Assembly (NCBI GenBank): GCA_964291415.2
Contig: OZ219918.1
Coordinates: 512,001-576,000 of the forward strand
From: Alphaproteobacteria bacterium
Lineage (GTDB): Bacteria; Pseudomonadota; Alphaproteobacteria; SP197
Length of the DNA: 64,000 nucleotides
Direction: 5' to 3'
A program made the position numbers and the translations under genes. Numbering within the stretch: position 1 is the stretch's first letter; each line of letters opens with the position of its first letter. The notes below the pieces were generated by a model. The model had not been told where the DNA came from, searched no databases, and saw nothing but the letters and a program-made list of their open reading frames with translations. Below are positions 3,345 to 9,173 of this stretch, one piece after another.

Positions 3345-4643
3345 ATGACACGCACGATCAACTCGGTGGCCGTGATCGGCGCCGGAACCATGGGAACCGG
3401 AATCGCCGGCAAGTGCGCGGACGCGGGTTGCAGGGTCCTGCTCCTTGACGTGGACCGCGACACCGTGGATGCGGCGATGCACCGCATCACCGAAGGCCGC
3501 CCGCCGGCCATCGACAATCCCGACAGCACCAAACTGATCGAGACCGGCACCTTCGACGATCTGGCGAAGATCACGGACTACGACTGGATCTGCGAGGCTG
3601 TCATTGAGGATCTCGCAACCAAGCGCGACATGTTCGCGAAGCTCGAGCACTGGCGCAGCGACGGTTCGGTGATCTCCACCAACACATCGGGCATCCCGCT
3701 GCGCTCGATCACAGAAGGCATGCCCGCGAGGTTGCGCCGGGACGTCGTGGTGACACACTTCTTCAATCCCGTGAAGGTGATGAAGCTGCTGGAGATCGTT
3801 CCCGGAGAGGAGACGGCGCCGGATGTGGTCAAGGCGATGGCGGCGTTCTGCTCGACCAGGCTCGACAAGGGTGTCGTTCATGCCAAGGACACCGTGAACT
3901 TCATCGGCAACCGCATCGGCTGTTTCTGGATGCTGTCGGGCCTCCACAAGGCCAGAAAGGCGCGCCGCGAAGGCGGGTTGCAGATGGAGGAGATCGATGC
4001 CCTCATGTCGGCGCCCGTGGGGCTGCCGCCGACGGGACTCTATGGGCTGATCGATCTCATCGGCCTCGACGTGATGGACCTTGTCGGAAAGAACCTGGCG
4101 GCGAATCTCCCCGACGGCGACACGGGCCACCTCTACACGACATTCCCGCAAGAAGAGCAGGCGATGCTTGCGAGGGGCCAGCTCGGACGCAAGACGCGGG
4201 GTGGTTTCTATCGGGTCACCAGGACCGATGACGGTGAACGGCTGCGCGAGACCTTTGATCTCGACGAAGCCCGATGGCGCCCGTCGACAGCGACGGACAT
4301 TGCGGGGACTCCACGTGAACTCATGACCGCCCCGGGTGCCGCGGGTGATTTCGCCAGGGACCTCATGGGTGGTGTTCTCGCCTACGCTGCCGGCCTGGTC
4401 GGCGAGATATCCGACGACATCGTCAACATCGATCGCGCGATGCGCTGGGGGTTCGCCTGGAAGAAGGGGCCCTTCGAACTCATCGACGACATCGGACACG
4501 ACACGCTGGCCGCCATTCTCGAATCGTCGGGAGAGCCGTTGCCGAGAATGCTCCGCGTCGCAAGGGATGCCGGGGCGTCAACCTTCCACGACGGCGAACG
4601 TTTCCTTGGCCTGGATGGTCGCTGGCACGATCTCGTTGACTGA
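3345..4643 (+). CDS. 3-hydroxyacyl-CoA dehydrogenase (FadN-like N-terminal part)
   Basis: GAGTMG Rossmann motif, EAVIEDL, STNTSG, HFFNP, FIGNR, two C-terminal helical domains (..GF.W..GPFE). Confidence 0.88.
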   Translation: MTRTINSVAVIGAGTMGTGIAGKCADAGCRVLLLDVDRDTVDAAMHRITEGRPPAIDNPDSTKLIETGTFDDLAKITDYDWICEAVIEDLATKRDMFAKLEHWRSDGSVISTNTSGIPLRSITEGMPARLRRDVVVTHFFNPVKVMKLLEIVPGEETAPDVVKAMAAFCSTRLDKGVVHAKDTVNFIGNRIGCFWMLSGLHKARKARREGGLQMEEIDALMSAPVGLPPTGLYGLIDLIGLDVMDLVGKNLAANLPDGDTGHLYTTFPQEEQAMLARGQLGRKTRGGFYRVTRTDDGERLRETFDLDEARWRPSTATDIAGTPRELMTAPGAAGDFARDLMGGVLAYAAGLVGEISDDIVNIDRAMRWGFAWKKGPFELIDDIGHDTLAAILESSGEPLPRMLRVARDAGASTFHDGERFLGLDGRWHDLVD

Positions 4644-4843
4644 GATTGCGTCATAGGGTGTTGACTTCGGTCGTTGTCTCAACCGGCCGATACCGGTGGT
4701 TCAGGGTCACCAGCGACGTATCGCAGCAGAGTTTGAGCAGATTCGCGGAGCGTTACATGCCAGACAGCGGACGTTGACCAATCGGGCCTCGTCGGGTTCC
4801 TGGTGGAAGGTCGCGATGCACTGCAGGGCGGGAGCATTCAACG

Positions 4844-5821
4844 ATGGACGATGAACTCTGGCGCGTCATGCAGGAACCCGATATCGACCATCGTCTGGCT
4901 GATGGACTGCGCTCAAATCGGAGTTTCGCGGAATGGTGGGTCGGGAGAATTCTGCCGACATTGAAGTTGGGCGATCTCGTGGAGATCAAGCCCAACTATA
5001 CGCGGGAAGAAGAGTCCTGGTCCTCACAAAGCAAACCGGCCCGGGAAACGGATCTGCACGTTGTTGCCAAGGACGCTCATGGCGATCGCTTCGCCATCCT
5101 GACCGAGAGCAAGGTCGTGGCACCGGCCAGCAAGCATCAACCCGAAGACTACTCCGCTTACGTCCGGTGGGGGGAGTCGCAGGGAATGTGGAGGCGGGGA
5201 GTCACAGTTCTCATGGCTCCAAAGGGCTACCTGGATCGACCGTCGAGCGCAGGAATGTATGACATCAAAATGAGCTATGAAGAGATTCGCGATTCGGCCC
5301 AAGCCAACGGCCTCAAGGATTTGGCATCCTACCTGGATGCCGGCATCGTTCGGCATGGCTATTCCGGATCAGCCAGAAACCCGAGTGAATTGATCGGCGG
5401 GTTTCGCGTGCGTTACTCCGATCTTCTTCGGGAAGAATACAGGCGTCTCTACGACAGTCTTTCGGGGAACACCAAGAAACAGTTCGATGCGAGTCAGCGG
5501 TGGTTCGAGTTTCGTCCACGACAGTGTCGGTTAGGGAGGGTCACTGTTCCGGGCGTTGAGGTTATCCACAAGATCTGTAACAGGGCGAAGAGGGATCAGG
5601 ATCGTTCCGCGCAGCAGTATCTGGCAGTGCATGTTCCGCGGGCCGGGTGCTACGAGAATAGTCCGCCGAACTGGAATGGGCGATATCGATGGCGTGAGAG
5701 CAAGGCGTTCTGGATTCTGGACACTCCACTGGATGCCGACGATTGGCTGTTCTTCGATGACTTCGATGCTGAGGCCGCACGACGCGTCTGGGCGAGAATG
5801 TCCGAACTGATCGAAGACTAG
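4844..5821 (+). CDS. Hypothetical protein, PD-(D/E)XK nuclease-like N-terminal domain
   Basis: E.DID helix, then ETDL....ILTESKV.A....QPEDY, resembling the D...ExK...Q..Y core of PD-(D/E)XK families. Codon usage looks less GC3-biased than neighbours by eye. Confidence 0.6.
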   Translation: MDDELWRVMQEPDIDHRLADGLRSNRSFAEWWVGRILPTLKLGDLVEIKPNYTREEESWSSQSKPARETDLHVVAKDAHGDRFAILTESKVVAPASKHQPEDYSAYVRWGESQGMWRRGVTVLMAPKGYLDRPSSAGMYDIKMSYEEIRDSAQANGLKDLASYLDAGIVRHGYSGSARNPSELIGGFRVRYSDLLREEYRRLYDSLSGNTKKQFDASQRWFEFRPRQCRLGRVTVPGVEVIHKICNRAKRDQDRSAQQYLAVHVPRAGCYENSPPNWNGRYRWRESKAFWILDTPLDADDWLFFDDFDAEAARRVWARMSELIED

Positions 5822-5955
5822 GCGAAGGGAACACTGCGACACAGACCTGGCAGACTGGGTCAAGGGCACACGGATGCCATTGCGGCTCACAAGATGCGAA
5901 CGAAAAGTGCGGCAGGCTTCGATACCGACGATCGGGACTACGGGGTCGTACAGAC

Positions 5956-5984
5956 TTGACGCCACCTCCCAATCGGCCTACATC
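5956..5984 (+). promoter_or_regulatory. Putative sigma70 promoter of the NYN leader
   Basis: TTGACG (5956-5961), 17 bp, TACATC (5979-5984). Lack of the -7 T is common in alphaproteobacterial promoters. Confidence 0.5.
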
Positions 5985-5988
5985 TTGA

Positions 5989-6050
5989 GCAGTCACCCCT
6001 GTGGCTTCGACTGCAGGGCGCGGGGCCGCTTAGGCGGCCCCTGCTTTTTT
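5989..6050 (+). ncRNA. Candidate ~60-nt two-hairpin RNA or leader upstream of the NYN gene
   Basis: Hairpin CCCUGUGG-cuucga-CUGCAGGG (5997-6018, two G-U pairs), followed directly by a terminator hairpin and U6. Confidence 0.45.
6020..6050 (+). terminator. Intrinsic terminator 11 nt upstream of the NYN start codon
   Basis: Perfect 8-bp stem GGGGCCGC-ttag-GCGGCCCC (6022-6041), then TGC and TTTTTT (6045-6050). Confidence 0.8.
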
Positions 6051-6061
6051 GGCGGTTTCCA

Positions 6062-6685
6062 ATGCGCACATTCGTTTACGTCGATGGGTTCAATCTCTAC
6101 TACGGGGCGCTCAGGCGAACGCCGTGGAAGTGGCTGGACCTTGTCGCTCTGGCCGGAAGAGTGCTGCAGCCGCATCATCAGATCGTGACGCTTCGGTACT
6201 TTACGGCGAAGGTCTCGGAGACCGTCAGGGATCCGACCAAACCGCATCGCCAGGACAGCTACTTGCGTGCGCTGCGTGCCACGCGGCCGGAGGTCGAAGT
6301 GCATTTCGGCCACTTTCTCACCCATAGAGTGTGGATGCCGCTGGTTCGGCCGACCGGCGATCAGCACATGGTCGAGGTCTTCAAGACCGAAGAAAAGGGC
6401 ACGGATGTCAATCTTGCGGTGCACCTCCTGAACGACGCCGGGCTCGATGCCTATGACTGCGCGGTCGTCGTGAGCAACGACGGTGACCTGGCGGAGGCCA
6501 TGCGCCTTGTACGCCAACGTCACGGGAAACGCATCGGCCTGGTAAAGCCGGGCACCGGGCGGCTGTCTCAGCAGCTCAGGGAGCACGCCGATTTCTTGCG
6601 CCCGATCCGATCCAGCTACCTGCAGAACTCGCAGCTTCCGGATCCGATCCCCGGGACGAACATCAGGAAGCCAGCAGCTTGGTAA
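6062..6685 (+). CDS. NYN domain (LabA/DUF88, PIN-like) predicted ribonuclease
   Basis: VYVDGFNLYYG, EEKGTDVNLA, VSNDGDL: the acidic catalytic set is intact. Confidence 0.92.
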   Translation: MRTFVYVDGFNLYYGALRRTPWKWLDLVALAGRVLQPHHQIVTLRYFTAKVSETVRDPTKPHRQDSYLRALRATRPEVEVHFGHFLTHRVWMPLVRPTGDQHMVEVFKTEEKGTDVNLAVHLLNDAGLDAYDCAVVVSNDGDLAEAMRLVRQRHGKRIGLVKPGTGRLSQQLREHADFLRPIRSSYLQNSQLPDPIPGTNIRKPAAW

Positions 6686-7017
6686 GGTCCGCCATACTCG
6701 AGTACCCGACTTCCTCCTGGCGCGGCTGATGCTTGTTGATCATTGATCGCCGTCCCTGACCAGGGCGCAGCCCTCATCGAAGAGAGAGTTTGGCACCTTC
6801 CCGATCGTGTTGGCGTCGTGTCTCGGGAAGGTCAAGGTTTCGCGGGGCGGGATTGTCTGGCTGAGTTCTGACGATCTGGAACACCCGCTCCGTGCCGTCG
6901 ACTTCCGTTCTCAGCGAGTAGCGCCAGGGGGCAGGTGTCTTCATTTCCCTGCATCCGGTTCGGCTGAGGGTCGCAGAGTGCCCGAAGGGTTCCGGATTCT
7001 GCCGGATGGACCGTGAC

Positions 7018-7467
7018 TCACGGCCCGCCGGTCAGGGCGATGGCGACACCCACAGCGCCGTCCGTGGCCGGGCTGATCGTGATCAGGGCTTCCTCGAGGA
7101 CGCAGATCCGCGCTTCGCTGAAACAGGCGCCGAAGGTGACGGCGATGGCGGCCGGCTGGTGAAGGCGGCCGGGATCGAAGGGGAATGTCTCCAGAACCGG
7201 GCCGTTGAAGTAGTCGGCGTCCACCTTCACCACCCGTGGCAGTTCACCCGTCCATGGCCGGTTGTCATCGGCCGGGGCGAAGGCGACACCAAGCGTGCCG
7301 GAGAGCGTCACATCGGGAGGTGGCAGAAGGGCTATGGCGAGAGCCCTTCCCTGGTTCACGTAGGCCTCGATCCTGACGGAGGTGGCGGAAAGGATGCCGG
7401 TGACGCCGCCGGCCAGTGCCGGCGACAGGGAGACGAGAACCGCAAGGACTGCGACGACGCGCTTCAT
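7018..7467 (-). CDS. Secreted hypothetical protein with a C-terminal Cys pair
   Basis: Signal-peptide-like MKRVVAVLAVLVSLSPALA; GACFSEARICV near the C-terminus. Confidence 0.65.
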   Translation of the reverse strand: MKRVVAVLAVLVSLSPALAGGVTGILSATSVRIEAYVNQGRALAIALLPPPDVTLSGTLGVAFAPADDNRPWTGELPRVVKVDADYFNGPVLETFPFDPGRLHQPAAIAVTFGACFSEARICVLEEALITISPATDGAVGVAIALTGGP

Positions 7468-7577
7468 GTGCCGAGGATAGGACATCATCCGGAACGATCA
7501 AATGCTCCGTTTCTTGCGACTGGACAAAATGCCCTGATGGCGGCACACATCGGGTCTGATTGCACCATCAGGTCTTC

Positions 7578-9173
7578 ATGATGTCCCACGACCACGAGGT
7601 CGCCAGGCGGCGCACGTTCGCCATCATCTCCCATCCCGATGCCGGCAAGACGACGCTTACCGAAAAGCTGCTGCTGTTCGGCGGCGCCATTCAGCTTGCC
7701 GGGGCGGTCAAGGCGCGGGGCGAACGCCGCCGGGCGCGTTCCGACTGGATGAAGGTGGAACAGGAGCGCGGCATCTCGGTGACCGCATCGGTGATGAACT
7801 TCACCTACCAGGGGTGCGTCTTCAATCTGCTCGACACCCCCGGCCACGAGGACTTCAGCGAGGACACCTACAGGGTGCTGACGGCCGTCGACAGCGCAAT
7901 CATGGTGATCGATGCCGCCCGTGGCATCGAGGCCCAGACCCGAAAGCTGTTCGAGGTGTGCCGGCTCAGGGACATGCCGGTGACGACCTTCATCAACAAG
8001 ATGGATCGCGATGGACGCGATCCCTTCGATCTGATCGACGAGGTCGAACAGACACTGCAGATCGAGATGGCGCCGGCGAGCTGGCCCATCGGCATGGGGC
8101 GCGACTTCCAGGGATGCTGGGACCTGGTGCACGACCGCCTCGTTCTCATGAAGCGTGGCAAGGGAGAGACGATTGCGGACGGCATTGCCTGCGAAGGCAT
8201 CGATTCGCCCGAACTCGACACCCTGCTTCCCGGTCATGCTGTCGCGCAACTGCGCGACGAGGTCGAGATGACCCGGGAACTGATGGCTCCATTCAGTCGG
8301 CAGGACTACCTCGCAGGCAACCTCTCACCGCTCTATTTTGGCAGCGCCCTCAACAACTTCGGCGTGCGGGAACTCATCGGCGGCCTGGTGGGGAACGCTC
8401 CGCCGCCCGGTTCGCGGCCAGCGCTTGAACGCACGGTTGAACCGGCCACGCACGAGGTCACCGGCTTTGTCTTCAAGATCCAGGCCAACACGGACCCGCG
8501 CCATCGTGACCGGATCGCCTTCGTTCGCCTGGTGTCGGGGCATTTCCGGCGAGGCATGAAACTGAAGCACTCGCGGACCGGCAAGCACATCATCATGCAC
8601 AGCCCGCAGGTCTTCCTGGCGCAGGATCGTGAACTGGCCGACGAGGCCTTTGCCGGCGACATCGTCGGTGTCCCCAATCACGGCAATCTCCATATCGGCG
8701 ACACGCTCTCGGAGGAGGGAGATCTCACGTTTACCGGCATTCCGAGTTTCGCGCCTGAACACCTGCGGAACGTGCGCGCTGCGGATCCCCTCAAGTCAAA
8801 GCACCTCGGTCGCGCCCTGCAGCAGCTGGCCCAGGAGGGCGCCGCCCATGTCTTCCGACCCGTGATGGACTCCGATTGGGTGGTGGGGGTCATGGGGCCC
8901 CTGCAGTTCGATGTCCTCGCCGACCGGATTCGCAGCGAGTACGAGGTTCCGGTGCGGTTCGAGTCCTCGGGCATCCATACGGCACGCTGGCTCGACGCGC
9001 CCTCGGAGCGGATGATCCGCACATTCGCCGACCGCAACCGCGGGGCGATGGCCACCGACCACGTCGGCCGGCCGGTGTTCCTGGCGCGCAACGCCTGGCA
9101 TCTCGACCGGGCCATCAGCGATGCGCCGGATCTTGCCTTCCGGGATGTCCAGGAACACGTTCATGGCGCCTGA
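7578..9173 (+). CDS. prfC: Peptide chain release factor 3
   Basis: RRRTFAIISHPDAGKTTLTEK, DTPGHEDFSEDTYR, NKMD, FVFKIQAN.DPRHRDR. Confidence 0.98.
   Translation: MMSHDHEVARRRTFAIISHPDAGKTTLTEKLLLFGGAIQLAGAVKARGERRRARSDWMKVEQERGISVTASVMNFTYQGCVFNLLDTPGHEDFSEDTYRVLTAVDSAIMVIDAARGIEAQTRKLFEVCRLRDMPVTTFINKMDRDGRDPFDLIDEVEQTLQIEMAPASWPIGMGRDFQGCWDLVHDRLVLMKRGKGETIADGIACEGIDSPELDTLLPGHAVAQLRDEVEMTRELMAPFSRQDYLAGNLSPLYFGSALNNFGVRELIGGLVGNAPPPGSRPALERTVEPATHEVTGFVFKIQANTDPRHRDRIAFVRLVSGHFRRGMKLKHSRTGKHIIMHSPQVFLAQDRELADEAFAGDIVGVPNHGNLHIGDTLSEEGDLTFTGIPSFAPEHLRNVRAADPLKSKHLGRALQQLAQEGAAHVFRPVMDSDWVVGVMGPLQFDVLADRIRSEYEVPVRFESSGIHTARWLDAPSERMIRTFADRNRGAMATDHVGRPVFLARNAWHLDRAISDAPDLAFRDVQEHVHGA

Follow-up and report, generated by a model that had tools for sequence, protein, structure and literature searches.

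The 64,000 nt stretch of DNA analysed here (the window) comprises positions 512,001 to 576,000 of the forward strand of contig OZ219918.1, from the assembly GCA_964291415.2 of an Alphaproteobacteria bacterium. The module under study occupies window positions 5956 to 6685 on the plus strand, and appears from its sequence to be a self-contained unit of two genes: a small RNA gene, followed by a gene for an NYN endoribonuclease of the HEC-09 family with an intact predicted active site. An earlier annotation of this DNA (the original prediction) had proposed here a candidate for an undescribed NYN system with a single-copy RNA. Direct reading confirmed all bases of the described layout, whose features are the following:

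5956..5961, plus strand: −35-like hexamer TTGACG, read from the sequence
5979..5984, plus strand: −10-like hexamer TACATC, weak (3/6, final T missing), separated from TTGACG by a 17 nt spacer
5991..6050, plus strand: predicted small RNA of about 60 nt, its 5′ end placed from promoter geometry, its 3′ end from the U-run
5997..6018, plus strand: hairpin 1, arms 5997-6005 and 6010-6018, loop UUCG at 6006-6009, conserved C-run 5′ of the stem
6020..6050, plus strand: hairpin 2, intrinsic terminator, core 6022-6029/6034-6041 with eight G-C pairs, loop TTAG
6051..6061, plus strand: gap between the U-run and the start codon, 11 nt (GGCGGTTTCCA); ATG at 6062
6062..6685, plus strand: gene of the NYN-domain ribonuclease, HEC-09 family, 207 aa, assigned by Pfam, PADLOC and predicted fold

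The stem of hairpin 1 has nine positions, with a single C-A mismatch at the loop-closing position. Hairpin 2 is likely extended by two further pairs (G6020-C6044 and C6021-G6043, with a bulged U6042), and is followed by TGC and then by T6, the U-run at 6045-6050. The UUCG hairpin, the 8 bp GC hairpin with its U6 and the 11 nt gap to the ATG were all present as originally predicted. The accompanying claim that the gene has no Shine-Dalgarno (SD) sequence was roughly right, but a weak SD-like GGCGG lies six bases 5′ of the ATG; it is the only ribosome-binding signal. Within the 11 nt gap a promoter for NYN alone would not fit.

The protein is an NYN ribonuclease by several measures. Its sole Pfam match is NYN (PF01936; E = 3.1e-10, 41.2 bits against a cut-off of 24.2), and its PADLOC matches are HEC-09 and NYN. 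The HEC-09 profile (PDLC04163) aligns at positions 3-202 of 203 with residues 2-207 (E = 9.5e-45, 150.7 bits). Five acidic residues (D8, E111, D115, D140 and D142) do not vary in any of the 29 sequences aligned. A search of the Protein Data Bank (PDB) sequences with the family profile gave no match. The AlphaFold (AF2) model (pLDDT 80.5) was compared with known structures by Foldseek, which returned 2qip (E = 1.3e-08), 5yaa_C (4.8e-06) and 6fdl_B (5.1e-06) with a probability of 1.00. The claim of an NYN protein was borne out by the domain and by the fold match to 2qip and MARF1; the invariant acidic residues are its putative active site. There are 5,891 homologous proteins of 113-363 aa (E ≤ 0.001); the 120 best are 68-95% identical and nearly all have 207 aa. 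Fused forms appear to be rare, for which it is weak evidence that only four longer proteins were found at E ≤ 1e-10.

HEC-09 was described as one of nine candidate defence genes embedded in Hma (Payne et al., bioRxiv 10.1101/2024.01.29.577857). In the accessible part of that preprint it is a putative NYN/MARF1-like RNase, presented as a single protein with no mention of an RNA partner, and its three conserved aspartates are equated with the catalytic ones of MARF1. Embedding in Hma or another defence system was not seen for the window copy, whose neighbours at 4844-5818 and 7018-7485 have no PADLOC match. Full-text literature searches found, among the papers listed, none describing an RNA partner of an NYN protein. 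The claim of an undescribed NYN system appears to hold as far as the RNA is concerned, but the protein family had already been named as HEC-09 in PADLOC.

Taken alone, the window offers a terminator of good quality, a site only weakly resembling a promoter and a hairpin 1 that does not stand out. A terminator scan picked up the 6022-6041 hairpin (8 pairs, 8 GC, tail TGCTTTTTTG). A promoter consensus scan found no site in 4500-7600; the TTGACG/TACATC pair at 5956-5984 scores 8/12, and for want of a final T in its −10 hexamer it goes unreported by the scan. When 5985-6075 was folded as a single sequence, the result did not exceed chance (z = −1.20; an equally good fold was reached by 18 of 200 shuffles), so only the comparison with relatives supports the structure. 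This fold score, and the position of the terminator hairpin about 200 nt past the stop codon of the upstream gene (4844-5821), would suit the view that the structure arose by chance or merely ends the transcript of that gene. The relatives, as described below, speak strongly against it.

A scan of one genome per species gave 580 confirmed relatives. The best 80 (40-74% identity) were taken together with the window as a set of 81 loci (756 kb), and a further 20 plasmid and phage loci were picked by hand. By record title, the 80 relatives belong to Gemmatimonadota-type bacteria, Acidobacteriota, Alpha-, Beta-, Gamma- and Deltaproteobacteria, Nitrospinota, Planctomycetota, Bacteroidota, Chloroflexota, Verrucomicrobiota, Actinomycetota and others. 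Almost everywhere the 70-140 nt 5′ of the start codon have a common layout, with differing stem sequences.

Covariation was assessed in a MAFFT alignment of 54 upstream regions, which was not fitted to the structure; the same 54 sequences are the seed set of the covariance model R1. Of the alignment cells assigned to stems, 91.5% pair, compared with 72.0 ± 0.9% when the 3′ partners were shuffled (none of 500 shuffles reached the observed value) and with 40-52% when the partners were slid by 1-3 columns. Two-sided changes occur at 16 of the 17 pairs, in 183 cells versus 55.7 in the shuffles. In hairpin 1 compensatory changes of this kind were found at eight of nine pairs, and 85.5% of the cells pair. 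In the core of hairpin 2 all eight pairs covary and 98.1% of the cells pair, and each of the two extra pairs (G-C and C-G, with the bulged U) is formed in 49 of 54 sequences. RNAalifold independently gave 15 pairs, 14 of them with compensatory changes. The stems contain 74 G-U cells and 17 A-C cells; this excess identifies the sense strand as the folding strand. Unpaired features are also kept: an A followed by the C-run at the 5′ side, the UUCG loop (40/54), a CGC or UGC linker (48/54), UGC after hairpin 2 (44/54) and at least five U in the 9 nt tail (46/54). The covarying two-hairpin structure upstream of homologues, on which the original prediction was to be judged, was found at 77 of the 81 loci.

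In Rfam 15 no match was found at E ≤ 1 in window positions 5500-7100, and no family covers the RNA in six relatives, where the only matches were RNAI, tRNAs and weak unrelated ones. Whatever it does, this RNA represents a bacterial motif that is new, covaries strongly and lies outside Rfam 15. R1 matches the window at 5990-6050 with 75.6 bits (E = 2.4e-22), and with filters off this is the only significant match on its strand in the 64 kb. R2, a model of hairpin 1 alone, gives 32.2 bits at 5997-6018. A stretch near 6756-6770 that resembled hairpin 1 by eye was backed by neither model, and was discarded.

Linkage between the RNA and the NYN gene is tight, in two or three gene geometries. R1 lies on the NYN strand and ends at most 120 nt 5′ of the start codon at 77 of the 81 loci, 23 of which are outside the seed. 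None of the remaining four is a clean negative. In L059 the contig end cuts the RNA and the match is partial; in L036, titled Acidimicrobiaceae, a lineage with downstream RNA, there is no match, but the contig stops 23 nt past NYN; in L057 the RNA lies 5′ of a disrupted NYN gene, and in L070 it is convergent, downstream of NYN. Among the loci having both flanks we saw no intact NYN gene without the RNA. The disrupted locus (L057:4389-5607) consists of the RNA, a 42-codon NYN-like stub and a 338-aa open reading frame (ORF) from 4593, which ends with a match to NYN residues 6-207 at 5001-5606; at this locus an unrelated N-terminal part may have been joined to NYN.

The same census settles the question of chance. 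The element covaries and is kept with NYN beside unrelated upstream genes at 77 of 81 loci, and it has a promoter of its own. These findings refute both the chance reading and the reading of the hairpin as a mere terminator of the upstream gene, an alternative that the original prediction had itself raised; we regard its probability as negligible.

A promoter at this position is a conserved property. Although the TTGACG-17-TACATC site of the window, present base for base as claimed, is weak, a σ70-like −35/−10 pair at a fixed distance from the RNA scores at least 8/12 in 46 of 77 loci, compared with 3.1% of 289 control windows and 8.8% of shuffles. At a threshold of 9/12 the figures are 31 of 77 loci, 0.3% and 1.0%. 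Fifty of the 77 loci have a spacer of 17 nt. The distance from the RNA end to the NYN start codon is 2-61 nt, mostly 9-14 nt. Of the 54 relatives whose start is canonical and whose gap is at most 25 nt, 17 have a canonical SD core (GGAG, GAGG or AGGA).

In four Actinomycetota loci the RNA is convergent and abuts the NYN stop codon: L070 (R1, 44.7 bits), L089 in a Mycobacterium abscessus prophage (53.0 bits), L090 on a Paenarthrobacter plasmid (54.2 bits) and L091 on a Frondihabitans plasmid (25.4 bits). A promoter-like site was read by eye 5′ of the convergent RNA in L070 and L089. L092 has a weak divergent upstream match (18 bits). A minus-strand match in L085 (17.7 bits) was rejected as a convergent RNA, for it was mainly the terminator half that matched; this locus has a hairpin and terminator about 21 nt 5′ of the annotated start. 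The convergent RNAs indicate that what is conserved is linkage rather than co-transcription, and that the RNA is a separate linked gene, not only a leader. A conserved, separately transcribed partner RNA very probably exists.

These arrangements bear on the possibility that the element acts only in cis, as a 5′ leader (a terminating or stabilising hairpin, or an autoregulatory operator), and that the free RNA has no function. The position of the RNA in 77 of 81 loci, so close to the start that another promoter would not fit and NYN could be expressed only by read-through, is what such a leader would show. However, the four actinobacterial RNAs on the opposite strand downstream, together with the weak divergent match of L092, cannot lead NYN, and RNA copies without an NYN gene persist (see below). 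A conserved antiterminator pairing between hairpins 1 and 2 was considered and, by inspection only, discarded: none was seen, and hairpin 1 in its 3′ arm and hairpin 2 in its 5′ arm both read as G-rich. We consider a purely cis-acting leader distinctly unlikely.

Orphan RNA copies, with no NYN-like frame after them, were found at L003:3162, L013:7518, L015:2187 and L072:6118. They score 27.2-71.2 bits, three of the four at least 46.8 bits. Two of them (L013:7518-7578 and L015:2187-2246) are situated some 0.6-2 kb downstream of NYN, and 90-190 nt past them there are similar ORFs (71 aa in L013) with the sequence ...DELIAR.KKAAQR.MTPEEKRAQRISYIL... Two Paracoccaceae loci (L017:4379-4989 and L035:4146-4988) have three tandem promoter-RNA units each, of which the first two are followed only by 16-57-codon 5′ stubs of NYN. 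The idea that in these loci the RNA was kept better than the NYN stubs was given up: the stubs are still similar at the DNA level.

Hairpin 1 is single in the window and in nearly all loci, and the window holds exactly one RNA copy. A different architecture was found in L084:2330-2478, on a 4.6 kb ColE1-type plasmid of Escherichia coli (NZ_LR890655.1), where about four tandem hairpin-1 units are followed by the terminator and NYN. The units, each an ACAACCCnCC-hairpin with A-rich linkers, lie between a promoter-like site and the terminator; Tandem Repeats Finder reported a period of 33 × 2.6 at 96% matches and a period of 29 × 3.1. Judging from the repeats, hairpin 1 together with the C-run on its 5′ side is the functional unit, and hairpin 2 is the terminator. 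The claim of a single-copy RNA holds for the window, but not for L084 or for the two Paracoccaceae loci with three RNA genes. Among 5,426 complete E. coli genomes, 10 have the L084 module, in each case on a small plasmid. Another small E. coli plasmid, L081 (NZ_CP091696.1, 3,461 bp), has three annotated genes, for NYN, a 'VbhA family antitoxin' and a helix-turn-helix (HTH) protein, with the RNA at 341-400 and a ColE1-type RNAI also present. L081 and L084 would be convenient as directly tractable small-plasmid models.

Further from the window, at 35-47% protein identity, R1 was found 5′ of NYN on plasmids of Leptospira (44.8 bits), Phaeobacter (32.5 bits) and E. coli (27.0 bits on the 3,461 bp and 24.7 bits on the 4.6 kb plasmid), and more weakly on plasmids of Xanthomonas (15.5 bits) and Granulicella (14.6 bits). 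At about 30% identity (Klebsiella, Pseudomonas, Photobacterium) R1 finds no RNA. A hairpin and a strong terminator lie upstream of the start in 8 of 12 distant relatives (about 30-47% identity). On plasmids of Klebsiella, Pseudomonas, Xanthomonas and Thiothrix (about 30-37% identity) the upstream RNA is a variant (L087:2360-2480, L097:~500-580, L086, L098, L088 and L100), with a larger first domain, in some cases a shared GCGAUUAAGUU-like stretch, and then a strong AAACCGSC...GSCGGUUUUUU terminator.

NYN relatives are encoded in 455 of 72,556 plasmid records (Klebsiella 207, Xanthomonas 61, Escherichia 48), including plasmids of 3.4-5.7 kb, and in only 3 of 50,697 phage records. A BLAST search of the 68 nt RNA region against phages and plasmids gave no match, which is uninformative on phage-borne mimics, the RNA being too short and diverged for it. 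No conserved protein gene accompanies the module. When ORFs of at least 70 aa within 3.5 kb were clustered over the 81 loci, the NYN cluster was present in all 81; the next clusters (45, 29 and 8 loci) overlap NYN and are antisense or alternative-frame ORFs, and the next real flanking family occurs in 7 of 81 loci. The claim that there is no adjacent protein antitoxin agrees with this lack of a conserved flanking family.

Immediate neighbours were searched with Pfam in the first 73 of 147 selected ORFs. Thirteen were integrase, transposase, relaxase, methylase, Fic, RadC or primase-like, and the rest were housekeeping or unmatched. Four of the 81 loci share a long ORF that looks by eye like a DNA methylase, and in L029 (4617-4873) three tRNA genes lie directly 5′ of the module promoter, a typical insertion neighbourhood. 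A neighbourhood of this sort, and the occurrence of the module beside unrelated genes in many phyla, would also be expected if the hairpins acted as DNA, as a recombination site or as the end of a mobile element with NYN as its cargo. Such an element does not account for the predominance of G-U over A-C, which marks one folding strand, or for a promoter before and a U-run after the element, always in the sense direction. Moreover, neither a second end or direct repeat downstream of NYN nor a second model copy was seen in the window. We hold a DNA-level role to be very improbable.

The module of the window has a 325-aa ORF upstream (4844-5821, plus strand) and a 156-aa ORF downstream (7018-7488, minus strand), neither with a Pfam, NCBIfam or PADLOC match. 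The nearest Atlas clusters of the upstream ORF are of PD-(D/E)XK nucleases (PDDEXK_4, score 0.96), which is a lead only; the downstream ORF is not conserved beside NYN in the other loci. The G+C content falls to 0.57 over 4500-6000, from 0.63-0.70 around it. Together, the RNA-NYN module and the gene resembling a nuclease may constitute a small acquired islet, flanked by a 3-hydroxyacyl-CoA dehydrogenase gene (3345-4643) and by a large ORF (7560-9173), by eye a translation GTPase.

The original prediction had left three roles for the RNA side by side: antitoxin, cofactor and autoregulatory substrate. With moderate confidence, we read window positions 5956-6685 as a type III-like module of an RNA antitoxin and an NYN toxin. 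The transcript ends, the binding of the RNA to the protein, the inhibition, the toxicity and the trigger we infer as follows. The promoter would fire, and most transcripts would end at hairpin 2 and the U-run, giving an abundant small RNA. A few read-through transcripts would carry the NYN frame behind a weak ribosome-binding site, and little enzyme would be made. The RNA would bind NYN and hold it inactive, and recognition would probably be through hairpin 1, the conserved C-run 5′ of it and the YGC/UGC junction bases. If the supply of RNA failed, on plasmid loss or when a phage shuts off host transcription, free NYN would cut cellular or phage RNA and growth would stop.

In our analysis several features favour this antitoxin-toxin reading: the terminator-throttled layout, the lack of a protein partner, plasmid carriage, an RNase with its predicted active site intact, the extra and orphan RNA copies, and the tandem units in one lineage. 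Other observations weigh against it. A classical antitoxin is expected to be labile, and an RNA of two G+C-rich hairpins with a UUCG loop is probably long-lived. Hairpin 1 is single in almost all relatives, whereas the published type III definition asks for tandem repeats, and NYN has a fold with no relation to the toxins ToxN, CptN and TenpN. The tandem geometry also fits an RNA that is needed in cis for correct NYN expression. Of two mycobacterial plasmids, L093 has neither an RNA match nor an upstream terminator-like hairpin, and L099, by a crude hairpin search alone, has no upstream hairpin. The sample of loci consists of the best 80 of 580 relatives and the 20 that were hand-picked. Finally, the accessible part of the preprint reports that HEC-09, with its putative native promoter region, protected E. 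coli from no phage tested (bioRxiv 10.1101/2024.01.29.577857).

That last result, from one test, would fit a non-toxic housekeeping ribonucleoprotein (RNP), or one with a narrow target range, in which the RNA is a cofactor, scaffold or specificity subunit and activates or directs NYN rather than inhibiting it. For a permanent subunit of this kind one would expect what was found in several respects: linkage that is tight regardless of orientation, invariant junction and loop bases, an RNA that appears stable and compact, and no intact NYN seen without it. On the other hand, the RNA has no variable guide-like segment, everything beyond the stems being conserved. RNA copies without NYN, and extra copies beside one NYN gene, are easier to understand as an antidote, and the throttling of NYN relative to the RNA by the terminator, together with carriage on tiny plasmids, fits the logic of addiction. 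We judge the cofactor role unlikely; with the purely cis-acting leader it is one of the two chief rivals of the antitoxin reading.

If the RNA is the antidote of NYN, type III systems would gain a new and widespread family with another toxin fold and another RNA architecture. HEC-09 would then be explained as one half of a two-part system, to be treated as an RNA-protein pair, and the scale would be considerable: 5,891 homologues of similar length and 455 plasmid records, including small plasmids of E. coli and Klebsiella. Whether the module is the founding example of a large unrecognised class, in which a new RNA family neutralises an NYN toxin in many phyla and on hundreds of plasmids, we consider evenly balanced.

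Among known proteins the best structural matches of the window NYN are VPA0982 (2qip) and the NYN domains of MARF1, with a sequence identity of 16-19%. About 45 extra residues at its C terminus, including the conserved QLPDPIPGT...W tail, are absent from these domains, which are 149-162 residues long. The PIN toxins of the VapC type (type II) are also RNase toxins of the PIN-like superfamily in two-part modules, and are neutralised by the protein VapB; unlike them, the NYN module has no conserved protein partner. HEC-09 belongs to the same protein family as the window NYN and differs in its description, in the part of the preprint available, as a lone protein (Payne et al.).

Type III systems have been characterised by a terminator directly before the toxin gene, tandem RNA repeats and a common promoter (Blower et al. 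2012, as quoted in PMC12283969). In the window a rho-independent terminator (the 8 bp G-C hairpin at 6022-6041 and U6) lies 11 nt before the ATG, and a promoter site, weak here and conserved in position, precedes the RNA (5956-5984). Tandem RNA repeats are absent from the window and, in this sense ToxIN-like, were found only in L084. The putative toxin is not a homologue of ToxN, CptN or TenpN; Pfam and fold give NYN, and PADLOC gives HEC-09 and NYN. As far as the available text of that article describes them, ToxIN, CptIN and TenpIN share with the window module a promoter, a structured RNA, a rho-independent terminator, an endoribonuclease gene and the lack of a protein antitoxin, and share with the NYN modules both plasmid and chromosomal carriage and horizontal spread (PMC12283969). 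They differ from the NYN modules, which have an NYN/PIN-like fold, an RNA that is usually one hairpin and a terminator rather than pseudoknotted repeats and, in the actinobacterial modules, an RNA gene convergent to the enzyme gene. A 2025 listing of type III systems names toxIN, cptIN and tenpIN together with AvcID and AbiF (PMC12283969). The latter two are similar in pairing a protein effector with an adjacent non-coding RNA; they are set apart, by description only in the part of the article available, by their effectors, AbiF and the cytidine deaminase AvcD, which are not NYN proteins. Our analysis places the module of the window outside the families of toxIN, cptIN and tenpIN, which it nevertheless resembles on paper.

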